From NCBI GenBank assembly GCA_041497675.1, contig JBGQGY010000041.1:1-25204 (forward strand): DNA of 25,204 bases, given 5' to 3'. The notes below the pieces were generated by a model. It ran no database searches. It was not told the DNA's origin and saw nothing but the letters and a program-made list of their open reading frames with translations. This DNA comes from a bacterium. Its GTDB lineage: Bacteria > Sysuimicrobiota > Sysuimicrobiia > Sysuimicrobiales > Humicultoraceae. Below, in pieces: positions 1 through 23,056 of the stretch (position 1 is its first letter; every line of letters begins with the position of its first letter). Position numbers and translations under genes: made by a program.

Positions 1-117
1 CGCGTGACGGGGGCTGAGCACCCGCGTGGATACGACCGTGGCGATGGAGTTTGCGGCGTCGTGAAATCCGTTGATGAAGTCAAAACACAGGGCGATCAGG
101 ATGATGACGACGACCAC
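1..117 (-). CDS. pit: Inorganic phosphate transporter, PiT family (5' part only, runs off window)
   Basis: Manual translation from GTG at 117: VVVVIILIALCFDFINGFHDAANSIATVVSTRVLSPRHA, the PiT N-terminal signature (G-x-H/N-D-x-A-N). Directly downstream of a DUF47 gene, the usual pairing. Not in the ORF track. Confidence 0.9.
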   Translation of the reverse strand, partial: MVVVIILIALCFDFINGFHDAANSIATVVSTRVLSPRHA

Positions 118-125
118 GGCTGCGC

Positions 126-743
126 CTACATGTTTTTGGCGTGAATGCCTTCCAACAGATGAGCGACGTGCTCGCCCTGGTCGGTCGCTTCCTCAAGCGT
201 CTCGTAGATTTCCTTCCACTTGATGACGTCGATGGGATTGGAAACGGTGGCAAACAGACGCGCGATCGCGTCGCGCTGCAAATGATCGGCCAGGTTTTCC
301 AGCCGGTTGATCTCCTTCACGGGACCCTCCAACTTGTCCAGAGAGCGGAGATTCTTGACGGCCTCGACGACCGCTTGGCATTCGTTGACAATAATATGCG
401 CCAGTTCCTGCGCTTCGGGTGTGGAATGTGGTATCTGGTAGACGGCCATGCGGGCGGCCGCCGCTTCGATCCAATCGAGGACGTCGTCCAGTTGCTTCGC
501 GAGGGCGAAGATATCCTCGCGATCGATCGGCACGACAAAGGTGCGGTTCAGCCGTTCGATGATCAAATGCGTCATCTCGTCGCCCCGATCCTCGATGGCC
601 TTGATGGCGGCGGCTTGGCGCTCGACGTCCCGATAGTCGTCCATCATCGCTTTGAGCAGGCGCGCCGCCTGCAGCATGTTCTCGGCGGCCTCATTGAACA
701 TATCGAAGAACGACTCTTCGCGGGGCAGCAGACGTAACGCCAT
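126..743 (-). CDS. DUF47 family PhoU-like phosphate transport regulator (Pit accessory protein)
   Basis: MALRLLPREESFFDMF...IEDRGDEMTH...FVVPIDREDI..LAKQLDDVLD...LENLAD...IKWKEIYETLEEATD. SD GGAGGA at 751-756 (minus); start ATG 743 or 746. Confidence 0.93.
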   Translation of the reverse strand: MALRLLPREESFFDMFNEAAENMLQAARLLKAMMDDYRDVERQAAAIKAIEDRGDEMTHLIIERLNRTFVVPIDREDIFALAKQLDDVLDWIEAAAARMAVYQIPHSTPEAQELAHIIVNECQAVVEAVKNLRSLDKLEGPVKEINRLENLADHLQRDAIARLFATVSNPIDVIKWKEIYETLEEATDQGEHVAHLLEGIHAKNM

Positions 744-897
744 CATGTTATCCTCCGCAACGGAATCTTGGCACGTGGTTCGGCGCGGTGCCCTGGGTTC
801 CTGGATGGAACGGCGAAAGGCGGTTCGCTTGCACCGAGGCGCGCTGTCCCGGATACTGGGATTGAAGGCGTTCCCCGCGGGAAAGGTTGTGTCGATA

Positions 898-1863
898 GTG
901 CAGAGTAGCGAGCGCAACAGGGCGGTCGGCCCGGAGGTCAGCGTCCGGGAGGTCCTGCCCGATGGCAGTCCCGACCGGGAGTTGCGTCTCCTCGACGAGA
1001 TGGCAAGGACGATTCACGAAGCCGCGCAGATACTCAACACGGCCATGGGCGGCGGTGTGCCGTTTGGCGAAGCCTGGGAACTGATCAGAGACCTGGAGCA
1101 CAAAGGTGATGCAATCGCGCGCGACCTCTTTGACGCGCTGATGGTGCCGCGCGGCACGCTGGACCGGCAGGCGCTGACGGCCCTCACTGGATATCTGGAC
1201 GACGTCGTCGACGGGATCGAAGCGGCCGCGGCGCGTCTGGCGATCTACCGGATCCGGCGCGTGCTGCCGGCCGCGCACGAGATGAGCGCGATCATCCTGG
1301 AGTCCGCCAAGGAACTGGTCACGGCTATCGATCAGGTGCGCCGCATGGAGGACGTGTTTCCCCACACGCGGAGCCTGCACCGGCTCGAAAACCGGGGCGA
1401 CGATGTGCTGCGCGCGGCCATGGAAGCCCTCTTCTCAGGGTCGACCACAGTCAAGGATATTATCAAGTGGAAAGACATCTGCGAGATGCTCGAGACGAGC
1501 ACCGACCGGTGTGAAGACGTGGCGAACGTGCTCGAGACGTTCGTCGTCCAGTCGGGAGGCGAAGACAAACTTACGGCGGGCCGCCTCGTCGTCGATGTCG
1601 GCCGGCACGAGGTCAAGGTGGCCGGCGCCGTCGTGCCCGTCTCCGCGAAGGAGTTTGGCCTCCTGCACCTGTTGATGCGTCACCAGGGCAAAGTGGTGCG
1701 GCGCGAGCGGCTGCTCCACGAGGTCTGGGGCGACGACTATTTTGGCGACGCCCGCACGCTCGACACCCACGTTGGCTGGCTGCGCAAGAAGGTCGAGGCG
1801 CGGGGCGGGGTTCGGATCGTGGCCGTTCGCGGCATCGGCTACCGGCTGGATCTTGCGGGCTAG
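898..1863 (+). CDS. DUF47/PhoU-like domain fused to a C-terminal OmpR/PhoB-type winged-helix DNA-binding domain (no receiver domain)
   Basis: N part LEHKGD...LDDVVDGIEAAAARLAIY...LENRGD...IKWKDICEMLETSTDRCEDVA (DUF47). C part from ~1570: SAKEFGLLHLLMRHQGKVVRRERLLHEVWG...RTLDTHVGWLRKKVE...IVAVRGIGYRL (Trans_reg_C). Start uncertain (GTG 889/898 or ATG 1000). Confidence 0.88.
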   Translation: MQSSERNRAVGPEVSVREVLPDGSPDRELRLLDEMARTIHEAAQILNTAMGGGVPFGEAWELIRDLEHKGDAIARDLFDALMVPRGTLDRQALTALTGYLDDVVDGIEAAAARLAIYRIRRVLPAAHEMSAIILESAKELVTAIDQVRRMEDVFPHTRSLHRLENRGDDVLRAAMEALFSGSTTVKDIIKWKDICEMLETSTDRCEDVANVLETFVVQSGGEDKLTAGRLVVDVGRHEVKVAGAVVPVSAKEFGLLHLLMRHQGKVVRRERLLHEVWGDDYFGDARTLDTHVGWLRKKVEARGGVRIVAVRGIGYRLDLAG

Positions 1864-1884: not shown

Positions 1885-1960
1885 TTCACATTCCTTTGAC
1901 GTAGGATCCACTCTCACTTGACGTGGGTTCACGGTTCCCTTCACGTCCTGCTGGTACGCT
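1885..1960 (+). promoter_or_regulatory. PHO-box-like direct repeat array plus extended -10 of the pst operon
   Basis: TTCACA 1885, TTGACG 1896, TCCACT 1907, TTGACG 1918, TTCACG 1928, TTCACG 1940 (spacings 11,11,11,10,12), then TG-G-TACGCT at 1952-1960. Confidence 0.8.
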
Positions 1961-3053: not shown

Positions 3054-3989
3054 TTGAACCCGCGCACGACCGCCCACACCGGCGACCTCTTGTTCCAGCG
3101 TCTGCTGGCCGGGATGGCGGGGATGGTGCTGCTGATCACCGGCGCAATCACCATCTCGTTGACCGTCGCGGCCTGGCCGGCCATCGAGAGGTTTGGCCTG
3201 CGATTTTTGGTGACGTCAACCTGGAACCCGGTCTCGGGCCGATTCGGCGCCCTCCCGTTTGTCTACGGGACGTTGGTCTCATCGGGGATCGCCCTGATGC
3301 TGGCGGTGCCGCTGGGGCTTGGCGTCGCCATCTTTCTCTCGGAGTTGGCGCCGCGGTGGCTGCGGGTGCCGGTCGGCTTTCTTGTCGAACTGCTCGCGGC
3401 TATCCCAAGCGTCGTCTATGGTCTGTGGGGGATCTTCGTGCTCATCCCGTGGGTGCGCACGAGTCTCACACCACCCCTGCAGGCCGCGCTCGGGTTTCTG
3501 CCGCTCTTTCAGGGGCCGCCGCTGGGGTTGGGCATGCTGACCGCCGGGCTCATCCTGGCGATCATGGTCGTGCCGTTTATCGTAGCCGTCAGTACCGAGG
3601 TCATGCGCGCCGTCCCCCAAGCGCAGCGCGAAGCCGCGCTCTCGCTGGGCGCGACGCAGTGGGAGACGACCCGCACCGCCGTCATTCCCTACGCGCGGTC
3701 GGGGATCATGGGAGCGACCTTCCTCGCGTTGGCCCGGGCGTTGGGTGAGACGATGGCGGTGACCATGGTCATCGGGAACGTCCCGCAGATCAAGGCGTCG
3801 GTGCTCGCACCCGCGTATACGATCTCGGCCGTCATCGCCAACGAGTTCGCCGAGGCTACCGAAAACCTATATCTCGCCGCGCTGATCCTCGTCGGGCTCG
3901 TGCTGTTCGTCGTCACAATGGGGGTGAACGTCGTCGCGCGCCTCCTAGTATCGAGGGTCGCCGGGGGACCGGCGCTGATCAGGGAATGA
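3054..3989 (+). CDS. pstC: Phosphate ABC transporter permease PstC
   Basis: WNP..GRFGALPFVYGTL, ELLAAIPSVVYGLWG, REAALSLGAT, RALGETMAVTMVIGN. Confidence 0.97.
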   Translation: MNPRTTAHTGDLLFQRLLAGMAGMVLLITGAITISLTVAAWPAIERFGLRFLVTSTWNPVSGRFGALPFVYGTLVSSGIALMLAVPLGLGVAIFLSELAPRWLRVPVGFLVELLAAIPSVVYGLWGIFVLIPWVRTSLTPPLQAALGFLPLFQGPPLGLGMLTAGLILAIMVVPFIVAVSTEVMRAVPQAQREAALSLGATQWETTRTAVIPYARSGIMGATFLALARALGETMAVTMVIGNVPQIKASVLAPAYTISAVIANEFAEATENLYLAALILVGLVLFVVTMGVNVVARLLVSRVAGGPALIRE

Positions 3990-4840
3990 TCGCTGCGGGG
4001 CCGGGGTACCGCCGGCGCAAGGTCATCAACGCGATCATGAGCGCCGCGACCGCGCTCTGCACCATCGCCGTGCTGGTGCCACTGTTTGTGATCCTGCTCT
4101 TTCTCATCCGTCAGGGCGCCGGATCGATCAACCGGGAGTTCTTCACGCACCTCCCCGGCGCGGCGGGTGAGCCGGGCGGCGGCATGGCGAACGCCATCGT
4201 CGGGTCGCTGGTCCTGATCGGGCTCGCGGGTGTGATCGGCGTGCCGGTCGGTGTGCTGGGCGGCGTGTTCCTGTCCGAATACCCGGGCAGCAAGTTCGGA
4301 CACGTCGTGCGGTTGATGGCCGACGTCATGAACGGCATGCCCAGCATCGTGATGGGGCTCTTTGCCTACACGGTCATCGTCTTGCCGATGCGGCACTTCA
4401 GCGCGCTCGCCGGTGGCGTGGCGCTGGGCGTCATGCTCATCCCCACGGTGATGCGGACGACAGAGGAGATCGTGCGGCTCGTTCCCCAGAGCATCCGGGA
4501 GGCGTCGCTCGCGCTCGGGATCCCCCAATGGAAGACGATGGTGCGGATCGTGCTGCCGACCGCGGCCGGCGGGATCGTGACGGGGATCATGGTCGGTTTG
4601 GCGCGTATCGCCGGTGAGACCGCCCCGCTGTTGTTTACCGCGTTTGGCAATCGCTTTTGGAATTGGAACCTTCTCCAGCCCATCGCGGCGCTGCCTCTCC
4701 AGGTGTTCTCGTACGCCATCGCCCCATTCGATGACTGGCACCGCCAGGCGTGGGCCGGGGCGTTGGTCCTCGTCGCCATGATCCTGGTGATCAACGTGAC
4801 GGCCCGGTCCTTCGCGGCCCGGCAGGTGAACCTCCGATGA
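3986..4840 (+). CDS. pstA: Phosphate ABC transporter permease PstA
   Basis: [46 protein letters not shown] overlap with pstC. Confidence 0.97.
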
Positions 4841-5652
4841 GCGCTCTCGAGACGAACATCATGCCGAATCACGCCGCGGCGCCCCAGCGCCCGACGGTCG
4901 GCGGCATCGATACGCGCGACGTCCATGCGTGGTTTGACCGGCACCACGTGCTGCATGGGATTACCCTGGCGATCGCGCCCCGGCAGGTCACCGCGATCAT
5001 CGGGCCGTCGGGGTGCGGTAAATCCACGTTTCTGCGGTGTCTGAACCGCATGCACGAGCTCGTCCCCGGCGGCCGGGTCGGCGGCCAGATCCTGCTCGAC
5101 GGCGGCGACATCTATGCGCCGGGCGTCGACCCGGTGCTCGTCCGCCGTCGCGTCGGCATGGTGTTCCAGAAGCCCAACCCGTTTCCGACGATGAGCATCT
5201 ACGACAACGTGGTGGCCGGACTCCGACTCGGCGGCGATCACGGCGGGGCGACGCTCGACGAGACCGTCGAGCGGAGCCTGCGGGCCGCGGCCCTGTGGGA
5301 TGAGGTGAAGGACCGTCTTGAAAAACCGGGGACCAGTCTCTCGGGTGGCCAGCAGCAGCGGCTGTGCATCGCGCGCGCGCTCGCCGTGTCTCCCAAGGTG
5401 CTGTTGATGGACGAGCCGTGCTCGGCGCTCGACCCGGCGGCGACCCTGCGGATCGAGGAGCTGGCCCGCCAGCTGGCCGGGGACATCACCATCGTGATCG
5501 TGACGCACAACATGCAGCAGGCCGCCCGAGTCTCCGATGTGACCGGCTTCTTCCTGAACGGCGAACTCATCGAATTGGGGGTGACGGACCAGATCTTCAC
5601 CCGGCCGAAGGACAAGCGCACCGAGGACTATATCACCGGACGGTTCGGGTAG
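4837..5652 (+). CDS. pstB: Phosphate ABC transporter ATP-binding protein
   Basis: Walker [49 protein letters not shown]-terminal [14 protein letters not shown] overlap with pstA. Confidence 0.97.
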
Positions 5653-5716: not shown

Positions 5717-6373
5717 GTGACGCGCGACATGTTCGTCAAGGAAATGGAGGCGCTGCAGGCCGACGTCGTCCGGATGGCGTCGATGGCCGGCGACGCCATC
5801 CATGCGGCCGTTGAAGCGCTGAGGGACCGGGATGTAGCCCGCGCGGAGCGCGTCATTGCCGACGATGACCGGATCGACACCCTGCACCTCGATCTCGAGG
5901 CGCGGTGCATGCGGCTGCTGGCCCGACAGCAACCCATGGCGTCGGACCTACGCGCCATCGCAGCGGTCTTTACCATCACCCTCGATCTGGAGCGGCTGGC
6001 CGATCACGCTGAGGGGATCTCGAAGGCCGTCAAGCGTCTTGGGGACCAACCCCTGCTGAAACCGCTGATCGACATCCCGCGGATGGAAGCGTTGGTGCAG
6101 CAGATGCTCCGCGACGTCATGCACGCCTTCCTGCGCCGTGACGTCGCCCTCGCGGAGGCGACGGCGCTCAAGGACGACGAAGTCGATGCCCTGCGCAGTC
6201 AGGTGTTCCGCGAGTTGCTCACCTACATGATGAGCGATCCCGGCACGGTGTCGCGGGCGCTCGAACTGCTACTCGTGGCGCAACACCTCGAACGCGCGGC
6301 CGATCACATCACCAACATCGGCGAACGGGTCATCTATGCCGTCACGGGCGAACTCCGCGAACTGAACGTCTAG
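5717..6373 (+). CDS. phoU: Phosphate signalling complex protein PhoU
   Basis: DDRID, ARQQPMASDLR, DLERLADHA, DDEVD, LERAADHITNIGERVIYAVTG; follows pstB. Confidence 0.96.
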   Translation: MTRDMFVKEMEALQADVVRMASMAGDAIHAAVEALRDRDVARAERVIADDDRIDTLHLDLEARCMRLLARQQPMASDLRAIAAVFTITLDLERLADHAEGISKAVKRLGDQPLLKPLIDIPRMEALVQQMLRDVMHAFLRRDVALAEATALKDDEVDALRSQVFRELLTYMMSDPGTVSRALELLLVAQHLERAADHITNIGERVIYAVTGELRELNV

Positions 6374-6398: not shown

Positions 6399-6794
6399 GT
6401 GCGACGCGTCCTCTTCGTCTGACACGCCAACACCGCCCGCTCACCGATGGCCGAGGCGCTGTTCAACGCCGCGGCGCCGGAGGGCTGGCGGGCCGGATCC
6501 GCGGGCACGGATCCCAGTGGTACCGTCCGTAACGACGCCGTCGCCGCGATGCGGGAGATCGGTCTCGATATCAGCGCGCACGTCCCGCGGTCGCTGGGCG
6601 CGGCGCTCGGACCCGACGTCGAACTGCTCGTGGGGCTCTGCGCGGAAGAGGGCTGCCCCGTCGCACCCGGCATCCGCAGCCTGCACTGGCCGGTTCCCAA
6701 TCCCGCGGGTGGGGGGATCGATCGCTACCGCGAGGCGCGCGATCTGCTGCGACGGTTGATACGGGATTTGGTGGGCGATCTCCAAGTGAGATGA
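6399..6794 (+). CDS. arsC: Thioredoxin-type arsenate reductase (LMW-PTP fold) with in-frame TGA at the catalytic Cys position; candidate selenoprotein (alternative: nonsense pseudogene)
   Basis: GTG 6399 gives MRRVLFV-TGA(6420-6422)-HANTARSPMAEA, in frame with the track ORF 6447..6794, which has SAGT, AMREIGLDIS, LCAEEGCP, HWPVPNP. Confidence 0.75.
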
Positions 6795-19021: not shown

Positions 19022-19539
19022 GGCTCGAACCTGATTTCGATCTGCTCCCCGTCCTTGGGGACAACCGCCGGAAAGTTCGGGGTCGGCACGCCGTTGATCA
19101 GCACGCTCACGGTGCCCGCGCGCCCGTCCGCGCACCGGTCGCCGTTCTTGACCGTCTTAGATCCAATCGTGATCGACGTCTCCGTGACTTGAAGCGCGAC
19201 GCTGTTGAGGAAGGCCGCGATGGTGGCGTTGCGCCCCGCGGTGGCCGAACTGTCCGGGTGGATGTGGATGATGTCGTCACCGTGGGTGTGGATGTCGCCC
19301 ACCGACTGTGGCAGCGGCGGGACACGCTCGCCGCAGACGACGATCTTGAACGGCGCGTGCCAGTGATCGCCGATACTCGGCCCCGACGGCTGACTCCCGA
19401 CGATGGCCACGACCGCCGCCATCACGATGACCACGACAGACCCCGCCACCCACGGTGCCCATGACCACCGCTGGCGCGTGATCGCCGGCGCCTGGCGCGG
19501 CCGCCTCGGCGTCGTCCGTGGCCCGGTCTGGGGCCACAT
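19018..19539 (-). CDS. Membrane-anchored hypothetical protein with His motifs
   Basis: One TM helix, then DHWH and IHTHGDDIIHIHP, two Cys; ATG 19539 overlaps the upstream stop (TGATG). Confidence 0.7.
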   Translation of the reverse strand: MWPQTGPRTTPRRPRQAPAITRQRWSWAPWVAGSVVVIVMAAVVAIVGSQPSGPSIGDHWHAPFKIVVCGERVPPLPQSVGDIHTHGDDIIHIHPDSSATAGRNATIAAFLNSVALQVTETSITIGSKTVKNGDRCADGRAGTVSVLINGVPTPNFPAVVPKDGEQIEIRFEP

Positions 19540-19892
19540 CAGGCCAGGTCCGAGAGCAGCGTTGACAGGTGCTGCGTCACGGACGAGTTCGTCACCACCC
19601 GGTCGCAGCCCGCATCGGCCGCCGCCCGGCGGCGGGACGTGTCGGTATGGCCGCAAAAGCCCACCACGGGGATTCCGGCGAGATCCGGTTCGGTCTTCAG
19701 GGTGCGGATCAGTTCGATCGAATCATGGGATCTCGCGGCCAGGTTCACGACGATCACATCGGGGCGGTGGCGTCTCGCGCCCGCCAGCGCCTGGCCGGCC
19801 CCGCACCCGGCGCTGGACCATCCGGCCTCGCGGACCTGGTGCAGCAGCCGGGTACAGGAGAGCAGGTTGTCGTCGACGACCAACACGTGCAT
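19539..19892 (-). CDS. Stand-alone atypical receiver-domain protein
   Basis: HVLVVDDN, RPDVIVVNL, IELIRTLK..PDLAGIPVVGF, AAADAGCD: CheY-like pattern with Asn at the phosphoacceptor site. Confidence 0.75.
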   Translation of the reverse strand: MHVLVVDDNLLSCTRLLHQVREAGWSSAGCGAGQALAGARRHRPDVIVVNLAARSHDSIELIRTLKTEPDLAGIPVVGFCGHTDTSRRRAAADAGCDRVVTNSSVTQHLSTLLSDLA

Positions 19893-19900
19893 GGGAAGGA

Positions 19901-20218
19901 CTAGACGGACATCCCCATCGTCTGCAGTTGCAGCCGGCCATCCGGTGTGACTTTCTTGGTGGTCCAGGGCGGCGACCAGACGAAGGACACGGCGACGTTC
20001 TCTGCCCCGATCGCCTGCAGCCTGTTTTGGATCTCGCCCGCCAGTTGGGGGCCGACGGGGCAGCCCGGCGCCGTGAGCGTCATCACAATCGTGACGTCGT
20101 CACCCTCGAGGCGCAAATCGTAGATCAGCCCCAGATCCCAGACGTTGACCGGGATTTCTGGATCGAACACGGTCTTCAGAACCTCGATCGCCTGCTCGCG
20201 GGTAAAGGTCTCGTCCAT
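19901..20218 (-). CDS. Metal-sulfur cluster assembly factor (DUF59 / SufT / PaaD-like)
   Basis: LKTVFDPEIPVNVWDLGLIY, MTLTAPGCP, VWSPPW motifs. Confidence 0.92.
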   Translation of the reverse strand: MDETFTREQAIEVLKTVFDPEIPVNVWDLGLIYDLRLEGDDVTIVMTLTAPGCPVGPQLAGEIQNRLQAIGAENVAVSFVWSPPWTTKKVTPDGRLQLQTMGMSV

Positions 20219-20298
20219 CGCGAATCCCACCCAGGAAGCGCTCGTGATGAAGAGCGCGGCGGATTCAATTTTATCCCCGCGCAGGCGGTCCGTCAAAC

Positions 20299-20322
20299 GC
20301 GGAGATCAATGCGGAGATCAAT
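20299..20322 (+). repeat. 12-bp tandem duplication over RBS/start of UPF0182
   Basis: GCGGAGATCAAT x2. Confidence 0.85.
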
Positions 20323-23056
20323 GATGAGACGCATTCGGTGGCTGTTCTGGATCGTTGTGGTCATCCTGTTCGTTCTGGGGCCGACCCTGGCACGCTGGTA
20401 TACCGACTGGCTGTGGTTCGGTGAGGTCGGGCAACTGCGGGTATTCTGGGTGCCGTTTGTGTCGCGAATCCTGGTGACCGTCACCGTGAGCGGCGTGCTG
20501 TGGCTGCTCGCGTACGTCAACCTGCGCCCCGCGCTTCGTGGTGCCCGGCCCGACGTCATCGAGATGGCCGGCCGCGGCGGCACCTACCGCCCGGCCAGGC
20601 CACCCGCGGCCGGGCTGGTCGAGTGGTGGGGGTGGCTGCTGGCCGGCGTCGTGTTTATCCTGGGACTCTCCGCGTCCGGTGAATGGGTCATGTTTCAGCA
20701 GTTTCTCCACGCCACGCGGTTTGGAGAGGTCGATCCGCTCTTCGGCCGTGACGTCGGCTTCTACGTGTTCAGGCTACCGGTCTACCGGTTCATGGCCGAC
20801 TGGCTGTTTGTGTGGCTGGGGCTCGTCACCGCCGCGGTGGCGCTCGGCTATGCCACGATGTACGGGCGGCTCATGTTACGTGGGCTGTGGTTGGCGCCGT
20901 CGCGTGTGCGCGCCCATCTCTCGGTGCTGGTGGGCGCGGTCGTGATCGTCCGCGGCCTCGGCTTTTGGCTTGACGGCTTCGATCTGCTGTACTCGAGCCG
21001 CGGGCCGGCGTTCGGGGCGTCGTACACCGACGTGCACGCCGTGCTGCCGGCGCTGCGCATCCTGACAGTCTTGTTCCTCGTTTGTGGTGGGCTGCTCGTG
21101 GCCAACGCCTGGCTCCGCACCGTCCGGCTGGCCATCGGGACGTTGGTGCTGATCGCCGCCGCCTGGGCCGGCGGGTTGCTGTTCTACCCGGGGACGGTGC
21201 AGTCGTTCCGCGTGCGTCCCAACGAGCTGACGGTCGAGGCGCCGTACATCAAGCATGCCATCAACGGTACGCTCAAGGGATTCGGATTGGACAAAGTGCG
21301 CGAGCGGGACTTCCCGACGGCGCCGTTGGATGCGGCCGCGATTGCGCGCAACCGGGCCACCATCGACAACATTCGTCTGTGGGACTACCGGCCGTTGCTC
21401 CAGGCCTACCGGCAGCTGCAGTCGCTGCGCCCGTACTACACCTTTTCGGATGTGGACATCGACCGGTACGAATTCAACGGGACCCAGCGGCAGGTCATGC
21501 TGTCCGCGCGCGAATTGACGACCACGCGGTTGGAGCCGCAGGCCCGGTCGTGGGTGAACGAGCATCTAGTCTACACCCACGGCCACGGCCTCGTGATGAC
21601 GCCGGTCAACCGCGTCACGGAAGAGGGGATGCCCGAGTTCTTCATCAGGGATATCCCCGCGGAGGCGATCCCGGGCCTGAAGATCGCGCGGCCCGAGATC
21701 TACTTTGGCGAGCTGACGACCAACTACGCGGTCGTCAACACGAACCAGCGCGAGCTCGACTACCCACGGGGCGACGACAACGTGTACACGCGCTACCAGG
21801 GAACAGGCGGCATCCGTCTCGGGTTCCTGCCCCGTCTGGCGCTCGCGTACCGGTTCGGCGATACGAAGCTCATGCTCTCGACGGATATCGGATCCAACAG
21901 CCGCCTGCTCTTTCGGCGCCAGATCACGCAGCGCGTGACGCGGATCGCGCCATTTCTGCGCTACGACCGCGACCCGTATCTCGTGCTGGCGGACGGGGCG
22001 TTGTACTGGATCCTCGACGCCTTCACGGTGACCAACCGCTACCCGTACGCGGCTCGCTACGGCGACATCAACTACATGCGCAACAGCGTGAAGGTGGTCG
22101 TCAACGCCTACGACGGGCGGGTCGCCCTGTATCTGATGACCCCCGACGAGCCCATCGCGCGCACGCTGGCTTCGATCTTCCCCGAACTCTTCCGCCCGGC
22201 CGCCGAGATGCCGGCAGCGATCGCCGCGCACCTGCGCTATCCGGTCGACCTGCTCGAGACGCAGGCGCAGGTCTACGCCACCTACCACATGCGCGATCCC
22301 CAGGTCTTCTACAACCGCGAGGACGTGTGGGCCATCCCGAAGGAGATCTTTGGGCACGAGACCGTCCCCGTTGAGCCGTACTACGTCACGATCCGGTTGG
22401 CCGAGGGGTCGGCGCCCGAGTTCGTCCTGATCCTGCCCATGGCGCCCGCCGGGCGCGACAACATGATCGCCTGGATGGCCGCCCGCAGCGACCCGGCCCA
22501 CTACGGCGAGCTGCTCGTCTATCGCTTCCCGAAGACGCGCATCGTCTTTGGCCCGATGCAGGTCGAGTCGCGGATCGACCAGGACGCGGTGATCTCGCAG
22601 CAGTTGACGCTCTGGAACCAGCAGGGCTCGCAGGTGATCCGGGGCAACCTGCTGGTGATCCCCATTGAAGATGGCCTGCTCTACGTCGAGCCGCTCTTCC
22701 TGCAGGCTCAGCGTAGCCAGTTGCCCGAGCTGAAGCGGGTGATCGTCGCGAGCGGCACGCGAATTGTCATGGCCCAGACCCTGGACGAGGCGCTGTCGCA
22801 GCTCTTCGGGGCGCGGCCCGGTCCAGGCGTGCCTGCGCCGGTGACGCCCGGCCCGAGTCCCGGCGGACCATCGCCTGGGCCCGCGCCGGCGGCTCCCGCG
22901 GGGGCCGATGTGCGCGCGTTGAGCGAACAGGCGGTCGCAACGTACCGCCGCGCGCAGGAGCGGCTGCGCGCCGGGGATCTCGCGGGTTACGGCCGCGAGA
23001 TGGAGCGGCTGGGCAAGATCCTGGAACAATTGGACGCAGCCACCCGGCCGAAGTAG
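20321..23056 (+). CDS. UPF0182 family membrane protein
   Basis: YTDWLWFGEVG, DPLFGRDVGFYVFRLP, GASYTDVHA, NIRLWD, HLVYTHG, NYMRNSVK, HLRYP, VIRGNLLVIP; start 20309/20321/20324. Confidence 0.93.
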   Translation: MMRRIRWLFWIVVVILFVLGPTLARWYTDWLWFGEVGQLRVFWVPFVSRILVTVTVSGVLWLLAYVNLRPALRGARPDVIEMAGRGGTYRPARPPAAGLVEWWGWLLAGVVFILGLSASGEWVMFQQFLHATRFGEVDPLFGRDVGFYVFRLPVYRFMADWLFVWLGLVTAAVALGYATMYGRLMLRGLWLAPSRVRAHLSVLVGAVVIVRGLGFWLDGFDLLYSSRGPAFGASYTDVHAVLPALRILTVLFLVCGGLLVANAWLRTVRLAIGTLVLIAAAWAGGLLFYPGTVQSFRVRPNELTVEAPYIKHAINGTLKGFGLDKVRERDFPTAPLDAAAIARNRATIDNIRLWDYRPLLQAYRQLQSLRPYYTFSDVDIDRYEFNGTQRQVMLSARELTTTRLEPQARSWVNEHLVYTHGHGLVMTPVNRVTEEGMPEFFIRDIPAEAIPGLKIARPEIYFGELTTNYAVVNTNQRELDYPRGDDNVYTRYQGTGGIRLGFLPRLALAYRFGDTKLMLSTDIGSNSRLLFRRQITQRVTRIAPFLRYDRDPYLVLADGALYWILDAFTVTNRYPYAARYGDINYMRNSVKVVVNAYDGRVALYLMTPDEPIARTLASIFPELFRPAAEMPAAIAAHLRYPVDLLETQAQVYATYHMRDPQVFYNREDVWAIPKEIFGHETVPVEPYYVTIRLAEGSAPEFVLILPMAPAGRDNMIAWMAARSDPAHYGELLVYRFPKTRIVFGPMQVESRIDQDAVISQQLTLWNQQGSQVIRGNLLVIPIEDGLLYVEPLFLQAQRSQLPELKRVIVASGTRIVMAQTLDEALSQLFGARPGPGVPAPVTPGPSPGGPSPGPAPAAPAGADVRALSEQAVATYRRAQERLRAGDLAGYGREMERLGKILEQLDAATRPK

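Follow-up and report, generated by a model that had tools for sequence, protein, structure and literature searches.

A DUF47 domain joined to an OmpR/PhoB-family winged helix: a candidate one-component regulator of phosphate uptake in Candidatus Sysuimicrobiota

How might a phosphate-uptake operon be controlled when the place at which relatives carry a two-component system is taken by a single gene that encodes no receiver domain? In studied bacteria, the phosphate signal passes through a transporter, an accessory protein and a histidine kinase, which makes it difficult to separate what the accessory protein itself receives and delivers. To our knowledge, it is still unsettled how accessory proteins of the PhoU type convey phosphate status. 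The question is raised here by a stretch of 25,204 nucleotides (the window) from contig JBGQGY010000041.1 of GenBank assembly GCA_041497675.1, in which one gene joins a PitR-type DUF47 domain, which has a PhoU-like fold, to a winged helix of the OmpR/PhoB family. This fusion is reasonably likely to be a one-component, kinase-independent regulator of the neighbouring pst operon, with the DUF47 domain replacing the receiver and a repeat array in front of pstS as its binding site. The genome (G000) is a metagenome-assembled genome of 3.97 Mb in 272 contigs, with a completeness of 98.6%, and the window begins at a contig end. It belongs to an uncultivated phylum that is common in soils and hot springs.

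The fusion and its candidate operator occupy the following positions.

898..1863, + strand: fusion gene (DUF47 plus winged helix), 321 codons plus stop in an uninterrupted frame, with Pfam matches to PhoU_div and Trans_reg_C
973..1551, + strand: DUF47/PitR-like six-helix bundle (residues 26-218), defined by AlphaFold2 (AF2) helices, a Foldseek match to 3l39 and a profile match to 3l39 (E 3e-31)
1552..1566, + strand: linker SGGED, five residues (219-223), joining the last DUF47 helix to the first winged-helix strand in the secondary structure of the model
1567..1854, + strand: OmpR/PhoB-family winged helix (residues 224-319), defined by Pfam Trans_reg_C, PDB profiles and Foldseek; recognition helix RTLDTHVGWLRKK
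1885..1944, + strand: six direct repeats in a 10-12-bp register between the fusion stop and pstS, a candidate Pho-box-like operator

Pfam places PhoU_div (PF01865, DUF47) at residues 30-216 of the fusion protein (58.7 bits, E 7.1e-16, cut-off 24.4) and Trans_reg_C (PF00486) at residues 245-317 (90.8 bits, E 5.7e-26, cut-off 26.2). It returned no match in this protein to a receiver (Response_reg), to PhoU (PF01895), to BTAD or to any third domain. An earlier interpretation of the locus made without database searches, here called the sequence-only reading, had described a single open reading frame (ORF) that joins DUF47 to a winged helix and lacks a receiver; the open frame and the Pfam matches bear this out. 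The acidic motifs that it quoted lie at residues 67-71 (EHKGD), 101-105 (DDVVD), 164-168 (ENRGD) and 203-207 (DRCED), and its linker, QSGGED, at residues 218-223 (nucleotides 1549-1566). The protein thus has the C-terminal Trans_reg_C domain of an OmpR/PhoB response regulator but not the N-terminal receiver with its phospho-acceptor aspartate. Likewise, it passes the DUF47 domain threshold but, with 321 aa and a second domain, is not the single-domain protein of ~205 aa that is encoded with pit. The gene at 126-746, which adjoins pit, fits that description. The start codon of the fusion is uncertain: GTG at 898, with GGAAAGG ~10 nt upstream, gives 321 aa, and an in-frame ATG at 805 gives 352 aa, the length of database protein P0002 (97% identical to the fusion). 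The choice is immaterial here because the first ~25 residues (1-25) are unconserved in an alignment of 38 fusion sequences and mostly of low confidence in the structural model (pLDDT below 50 at residues 5-8 and 10-22).

The AF2 model, built with the same 38-sequence alignment, has a mean pLDDT of 88.3 and a pTM of 0.73. Its N-terminal half consists of helices at residues 26-50, 56-81, 90-116, 124-148, 154-180 and 185-218, a bundle unlike the alpha/beta fold of a receiver, and residues 224-319 fold into a four-stranded sheet, three helices and a hairpin; in the linker between them, G220 is invariant. Foldseek matches the N-terminal half to the DUF47 structure 3l39 (TM 0.85) and, more distantly, to PhoU (1t72, TM 0.70), and the C-terminal half to the DNA-binding domains of YycF, PhoP, PhoB, SaeR and GlnR (TM 0.82-0.89). 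Among PDB profile matches of the winged helix, RegX3, a mycobacterial phosphate-responsive regulator, scores best (100.4 bits), ahead of YycF (82.7) and Escherichia coli PhoB (77.6); none of these matches is a solved chain with both domains. The best NCBIfam match is PhoB (TIGR02154; 74.3 bits at model positions 129-226, below the full-length cut-off of 296.2). The label 'PhoB-type' given to this domain in the sequence-only reading is therefore weakly favoured by the closest NCBIfam model and the closest solved relative, but the phylogeny considered below does not back it. A homodimer prediction with two copies of the fusion, using the 38-sequence alignment, scored 0.00 against a mark of 0.42, which speaks neither for nor against a dimer.

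The DUF47 half has kept the acidic residues typical of its family. The 38 fusion sequences were aligned with 124 stand-alone DUF47 proteins, and acidic columns conserved in at least 80% of the stand-alone set were compared. All eleven of these near-invariant residues (E67, D71, D101, D102, D105, E164, D168, E199, D203, E206 and D207) are present in 38 of 38 fusions, which upholds the proposal that the acidic motifs are retained. Two other positions are substituted in the fusion relative to stand-alone DUF47 proteins (H75 to R and Y195 to C). The last DUF47 helix (185-218) holds E199, D203, E206 and D207 and runs directly into the linker, so that the DNA-binding domain could respond mechanically to a change at the acidic site.

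An unusual gene at the end of a contig invites the suspicion of an artefact, be it a chimeric assembly, the loss of a stop codon or a gene in decay, and the fragmented, metagenome-derived assembly adds to it. The sequence-only reading had taken absence of the fusion from relatives as the mark of such an error. Yet the uninterrupted architecture was found in 50 of the 94 species genomes that make up the phylum set (one order; NCBI name Candidatus Sysuimicrobiota, formerly CSP1-3), in 20 of 31 genera and in 29 of 54 high-quality genomes, by a scan with close peptide patterns that distant independent fusions could have escaped. These genomes come from many assemblies, and no stop codon lies inside the listed genome matches. 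Searching 5.8 billion proteins yielded 515 matches, and both Pfam domains are present in all 120 of the homologues listed, each of which covers 89% or more of the query at an identity of 63% or higher; the fused form stands in at least 120 database clusters of several sources. Conservation is strong in the linker and in both domains, and AF2 models the fold with confidence. These sequences rule out a chimeric assembly or the loss of a stop codon, and the chance that the fusion is an artefact of any kind is negligible.

At 50% clustering, the best 150 of 3210 matches to the DUF47 domain include just two full-length clusters of the fused form (P0008 and P0122) plus fragments; ordinary DUF47 proteins of ~205 aa with at most 40% identity come next. 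The fusion family is therefore a tight clade. Both trees recover it as a monophyletic group with a long stem (support 100/99 for the winged helix and 100 for DUF47). An ESM Atlas look-up, made without a structure search, returned only clusters of the winged helix alone, with scores of at most 0.82. As far as seen, the family appears to be confined to one uncultivated phylum. Public records of the relatives are labelled Armatimonadota, 'bacterium' or Candidatus Fervidifonticultor, the last of which NCBI places in Candidatus Sysuimicrobiota, and the database names of the fusion proteins are already generic ('DUF47 family protein' and 'DNA-binding response OmpR family regulator'). Fusion counts throughout take in the unpublished genome G024, and kinase counts take in G024 and G017; the conclusions are independent of both.

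The second line of evidence is the setting of the fusion among phosphate-transport genes.

1..123, - strand: Pit (PHO4) transporter gene, first 41 codons, truncated at the contig end; Pfam PHO4, 29 bits for this part
126..746, - strand: stand-alone DUF47 (PitR-like) gene, 206 aa, divergent from the fusion; Pfam PhoU_div, 115.9 bits
2004..3050, + strand: pstS, TTG start after GGAGGGA; Pfam PBP_like_2, with orthologues beside the fusion in relatives
3054..3989, + strand: pstC; ORF and tblastn synteny
3986..4840, + strand: pstA; ORF and tblastn synteny
4750..5652, + strand: pstB, bounds of the ORF; ORF and tblastn synteny
5717..6373, + strand: phoU; Pfam PhoU, two repeats, E 6.6e-44

The PHO4 fragment falls below the cut-off because it is truncated; the full Pit gene in a locus of the same genus (L024) scores 326 bits. 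The true pstB start probably lies downstream of 4750, since the ORF overlaps pstA. The stand-alone DUF47 protein and the DUF47 domain of the fusion are 35% identical (tblastn). ORFs, Pfam and tblastn thus agree with the sequence-only reading that the fusion stands between divergent DUF47-pit genes and pstSCAB-phoU. Its statement that the window holds no histidine kinase gene is likewise confirmed: none of the 16 matches to the PhoR model in the genome lies on the window contig, and 16 further ORFs of the window contain neither HisKA nor HATPase_c.

This setting recurs in relatives. In the 18 related fusion loci compared, all from named public genomes, the synteny that had been proposed as a check was found in 14, where pstS and/or phoU adjoin the fusion; no phosphate gene is visible in the other four. 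The phoU gene lies inside the fetched stretch in 13 of the 14 phosphate-linked loci, and follows the fusion within 60 bp in five. Four unlinked fusion genes (L029-L031 and L034) have an amidohydrolase, GGDEF, a PAS kinase, DUF7453 and many ORFs without a family as neighbours, but no gene for phosphate. Across the phylum, a PstS match lies within ~1.1 kb of the fusion on the same contig in 30 of the 50 fusion genomes (counted by hand). The other 20 comprise 13 without this PstS type, G042, in which the fusion copies lie ~320 bp from contig ends, and six of genus g23 with PstS on another contig. One of the 13, G001 (an assembly of four contigs), has a second, non-orthologous type of pstS-pstC-pstA-pstB operon, in which the fusion comes last. 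The fusion and pstS of the usual type are also gained or lost together within genera: both are present in four g12 genomes and neither in four, both in two g5 genomes and neither in two, and both in one g6 genome and neither in two, although kin genomes are not independent and such co-occurrence counts overstate the statistical weight.

What stands at this place when the fusion is missing? Six loci without the fusion (L050-L055) were fetched. Four of them (L050, L051, L053 and L054, from genera g21, g24 and g25) contain a DUF47 gene, a PhoB-like regulator, a PhoR-like kinase, pstSCAB and, where the stretch reaches, phoU, and their DUF47 proteins are 67-71% identical to the stand-alone DUF47 protein of the window. 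L052 has the regulator-kinase pair and pst with no DUF47 match, and L055 has pstS only. The suggestion that the fusion occupies the place of phoB and phoR therefore holds, as the pair stands between the PitR-like gene and pstS in fusion-less relatives. The pst-linked kinase has orthologues (61-100% identical) in 14 of the 94 genomes, all of family f4, and all other matches in the phylum are at most 50% identical. Among the 51 genomes with this PstS type, 33 carry the fusion only, 10 the pst-linked kinase only, four both and four neither. All four with both belong to genus g23, where the pst locus itself contains the two-component pair and the fusion lies elsewhere.

A genome-wide check for phoR and phoB, also proposed earlier, gave a divided answer. 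G000 does encode a PhoR-like kinase: contig C76 (8926-11414; L047 4927-7418) carries an OmpR-family regulator and a 593-aa kinase resembling WalK, PnpS and PhoR, which scores 383.7 bits against the PnpS model (cut-off 400) and lies near but under the WalK, PnpS and PhoR cut-offs. By contrast, no orthologue of the pst-linked kinase was found in G000, where the best match, 42% identical, is the C76 gene itself.

A separate observation concerns the pair in g23. In G065 (L058 11115-11464), the pst-linked regulator was matched only as its receiver part, in two pieces, with no kinase orthologue (best match 41%), and the fusion is kept; this may be a two-component pair in decay.

The region between the fusion and pstS supplies a candidate target. 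Its six units (TTCAC, TTGAC, TCCAC, TTGAC, TTCAC and TTCAC) start at 1885, 1896, 1907, 1918, 1928 and 1940, and six in-register units were obtained in 0 of 500 shuffles. At least three units in a 10-12-bp register are present in all eight fusion-to-pstS intergenic regions, at least four in six of them, and in six of the eight the observed number was reached by at most 1 of 500 shuffles. In the whole 3.97-Mb genome, 1885-1944 is the only array with at least four units (at least three of them strict); three shuffled genomes gave 0, 0 and 0. Pho boxes of PhoB and PhoP are 11-bp-spaced direct repeats that adjoin the -10 element, and the last repeat here ends ~8 bp before a possible pstS -10 (TACGCT, 1953-1958) spotted by eye. 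In the divergent intergenic region 747-897, neither a TT[CG]AC unit on the + strand nor an array was found, and the window shows no sign of autoregulation.

The repeat core also changes with the regulator. A survey of 370 kb of fetched loci covered 20 fusion-bearing stretches and nine without a fusion gene. TT[CG]AC arrays were present in 6/20 of the former and 0/9 of the latter, and TTAA[CT] arrays in 0/20 and 5/9, respectively. G000 contains no three-unit TTAA[CT] array. The recognition helices vary in parallel: RTLDTH(V/I)(G/A)WLR in the fusions and RTVDVHVRWLR in the pst-linked PhoB-like regulators. G001 has TT[CG]AC arrays in front of its second-type pstS and, as three units just upstream, in front of the fusion gene.

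Two further sets of repeats came to light in these scans. Only one other place in G000, C142:5643-5669, matches the strict three-unit pattern; it is a simple tandem repeat of 11 bp (TTTCACCCCGG, three copies) outside coding sequence and was judged a coincidence. The DNA around it is non-coding and richer in AT, and ~100 bp further on lies a sequence resembling a tRNA 3' end (GGTTCGAGTCC...CCA); the repeat may be an integration site. A scan of five g23 genomes gave three strict TTCAC three-unit arrays, with 0 in a reversed-pattern control (L060 1501-1527 and L062 1501-1527, both of G065; L061 1501-1527 of G066). They lie ~100 bp upstream of genes for predicted secreted proteins of 83, 155 and 182 aa, of which those of L061 and L062 have no Pfam family; the promoter layouts of L060 and L062 are similar. 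These arrays may be further targets of the fusion, a lead only.

Taken together, how might such a protein work? In the favoured reading, the PitR-type six-helix domain would take the place of a phosphorylatable receiver, with five residues joining it to the winged helix. Several copies would bind head-to-tail on the 11-bp-spaced TT(C/G)AC array and set transcription of pstSCAB-phoU by phosphate status. The DUF47 domain would read phosphate through its conserved acidic site, either directly or through PhoU or PstB, and the signal would run along the last DUF47 helix into the winged helix, gating DNA binding or activation. The sequence-only reading had proposed much the same role, with contacts to Pit, DUF47 or PhoU as the indirect route, and is partly supported. 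Binding of the array by the fusion, phosphate as the signal and activation as the sign are all inferred. For the sign, activation at low phosphate is slightly favoured because the array abuts the -10, as in Pho boxes. A more specific version is tentative, being possible rather than probable: here, the DUF47 domain would itself be the sensor of phosphate, or of phosphate with metal, that drives DNA binding, and the protein would be a minimal Pho switch that evolved by displacing PhoR-PhoB at pst.

Several observations weigh against this one-component reading. The g23 fusion coexists with a pst-embedded PhoBR pair and lies among unrelated genes, so the link between fusion and pst is not universal. 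The kinase and OmpR-family regulator on C76 give G000 a PhoR/PnpS/WalK-like pair, whose regulator could bind the array instead. The motif F-x-T-P-x-D-R-E-D, in the loop between helices 2 and 3 of stand-alone DUF47 proteins (F 92%, T 90% and P 98%), is lost and variable in the fusion, and its domain may therefore not signal as PitR does. Strict TT[CG]AC arrays occur in just six of the 20 fusion-bearing stretches, the others being degenerate. A consensus scan of 700-2100 found neither a sigma-70 promoter nor a terminator, so the placement of the array relative to the promoter depends on a weak -10 picked by eye. Finally, the trees leave the sister groups of both domains open: in the winged-helix tree, the fusion clade, the regulators of C76, C34 and C26 and the pst-linked PhoB-like regulators form one polytomy, and the DUF47 tree places the fusion among stand-alone DUF47 proteins, with no support for a sister relationship to the PitR-like clade of the phylum itself. 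Consequently, the winged helix cannot be said to descend from a local PhoB.

Some of these points would suit a different role, in which the fusion modulates rather than replaces PhoBR as an auxiliary DNA-binding factor beside the C76 two-component system, for instance as a repressor under phosphate-replete conditions or a competitor for the Pho box. The presence of both kinds of regulator in G000 and in the four g23 genomes fits this role, as does an array that extends into the -35/-10 region, where a repressor would act too. A precedent exists in Staphylococcus aureus, in which single-domain PitR is a negative regulator (PMC13170248). The distribution of the C76-type kinase speaks against it: this kinase is core to the phylum (79 of 94 genomes) and present in 11 of the 12 genomes of family f5, where this PstS and the fusion are both missing, but is absent from all eight g12 genomes, four of which carry the fusion and pst. 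For this reason the C76 pair is unlikely to be the pst regulator; its neighbours, moreover, are unrelated to phosphate, the array type found in loci without the fusion is missing from G000, and so are orthologues of the pst-linked kinase. An auxiliary role is thus unlikely, if still worth considering. A scaffold that senses nothing is less probable again. OmpR-family domains need dimerisation to bind direct repeats and PhoU-fold proteins crystallise as oligomers, so DUF47 might serve for oligomerisation only, with the fusion constitutive or controlled by its abundance; loss of the putative partner loop of stand-alone DUF47 proteins would agree with this. However, a mere scaffold would not need to keep eleven acidic residues, which persist in all 38 fusions despite at least 35% divergence elsewhere in the domain, and the frequent proximity of phoU to the fusion (13 of 18 loci) suggests signalling. 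We regard this last explanation as improbable.

Receiver-less regulators of the OmpR family and accessory regulators of the PhoU fold are already known; what is new is their direct union, which has apparently displaced PhoR-PhoB at pst. ToxR, CadC, SARP/AfsR and EmbR are receiver-less one-component regulators with an N-terminal winged helix of the OmpR family, and their input modules are transmembrane or periplasmic, BTAD/NB-ARC or FHA. Like them, the fusion would have an OmpR-type winged helix driven by a non-receiver input without phosphotransfer. Unlike them, it has a cytoplasmic N-terminal input of PhoU fold, and its winged helix is C-terminal, as in response regulators. It shares with PhoB, PhoP and RegX3 the winged-helix family, a position adjoining pst and 11-bp direct repeats by the -10, but has no receiver, no phospho-acceptor aspartate and no cognate kinase at the locus. 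It also differs from the pst-linked PhoB-like regulators of sister genera in its recognition helix and repeat core. PhoU (PF01895) has a similar six-helix, two-repeat fold and the same phosphate-signalling context; it is a separate gene in the same operon, however, and leaves no PF01895 sequence match in the fusion.

The closest counterpart of the N-terminal domain is PitR/PhoU2 of S. aureus, which belongs to the same Pfam family, has the same fold and acidic residues and is likewise encoded beside phosphate transporter genes. According to PMC13170248, single-domain DUF47 PitR, together with its cognate transporter, is the dominant one of the negative accessory regulators of PhoPR, and the analysis there deals with single-domain PhoU_div proteins only. 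PitR (~205 aa) lacks a DNA-binding domain and exerts its effect on the kinase PhoR (PMC13170248), whereas the corresponding domain of the fusion is covalently joined to an output domain. The fusion also differs from the PitR family in lacking the F-x-T-P-x-D-R-E-D loop and in having a genuine PitR-like gene and pit next door. Full-text literature searches found no paper on DUF47/PhoU_div joined to a winged helix, in keeping with the earlier remark that no characterised protein of this architecture is known. The main texts of two papers on the phylum do not mention pst, PhoU, PhoB, PhoR or DUF47.

Another covalent pairing of phosphate-accessory domains was seen in P0128, a protein of 451 aa with two PhoU repeats (PF01895) and a C-terminal DUF47 domain that is 40% identical to that of the fusion.

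With a PitR-type domain wired straight to a DNA-binding domain that has a recognisable candidate operator, ligand binding and output would be measurable in one purified protein. The locus also appears to record an evolutionary swap of a two-component system for a one-component regulator at the same place, with a matching change of operator. If DUF47 is indeed the sensor, this would be the first PhoU-fold output readable without the transporter-kinase relay, offering a handle on what PhoU- and PitR-type domains sense. The fusion could also serve as a compact phosphate-responsive part for biosensors.

Two other genes of the window deserve mention. Directly 3' of phoU lies a gene for a low-molecular-weight phosphatase (LMWPc) or ArsC-like protein (6447-6791, + strand, E 7.6e-11). 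Arsenate is a phosphate analogue that is imported by phosphate transporters, and the adjacency of the two genes may be functional. Further downstream, 19403-23053 (+ strand) encodes a UPF0182 family membrane protein of 1217 aa (936 bits), with ~310 extra N-terminal residues in open frame.

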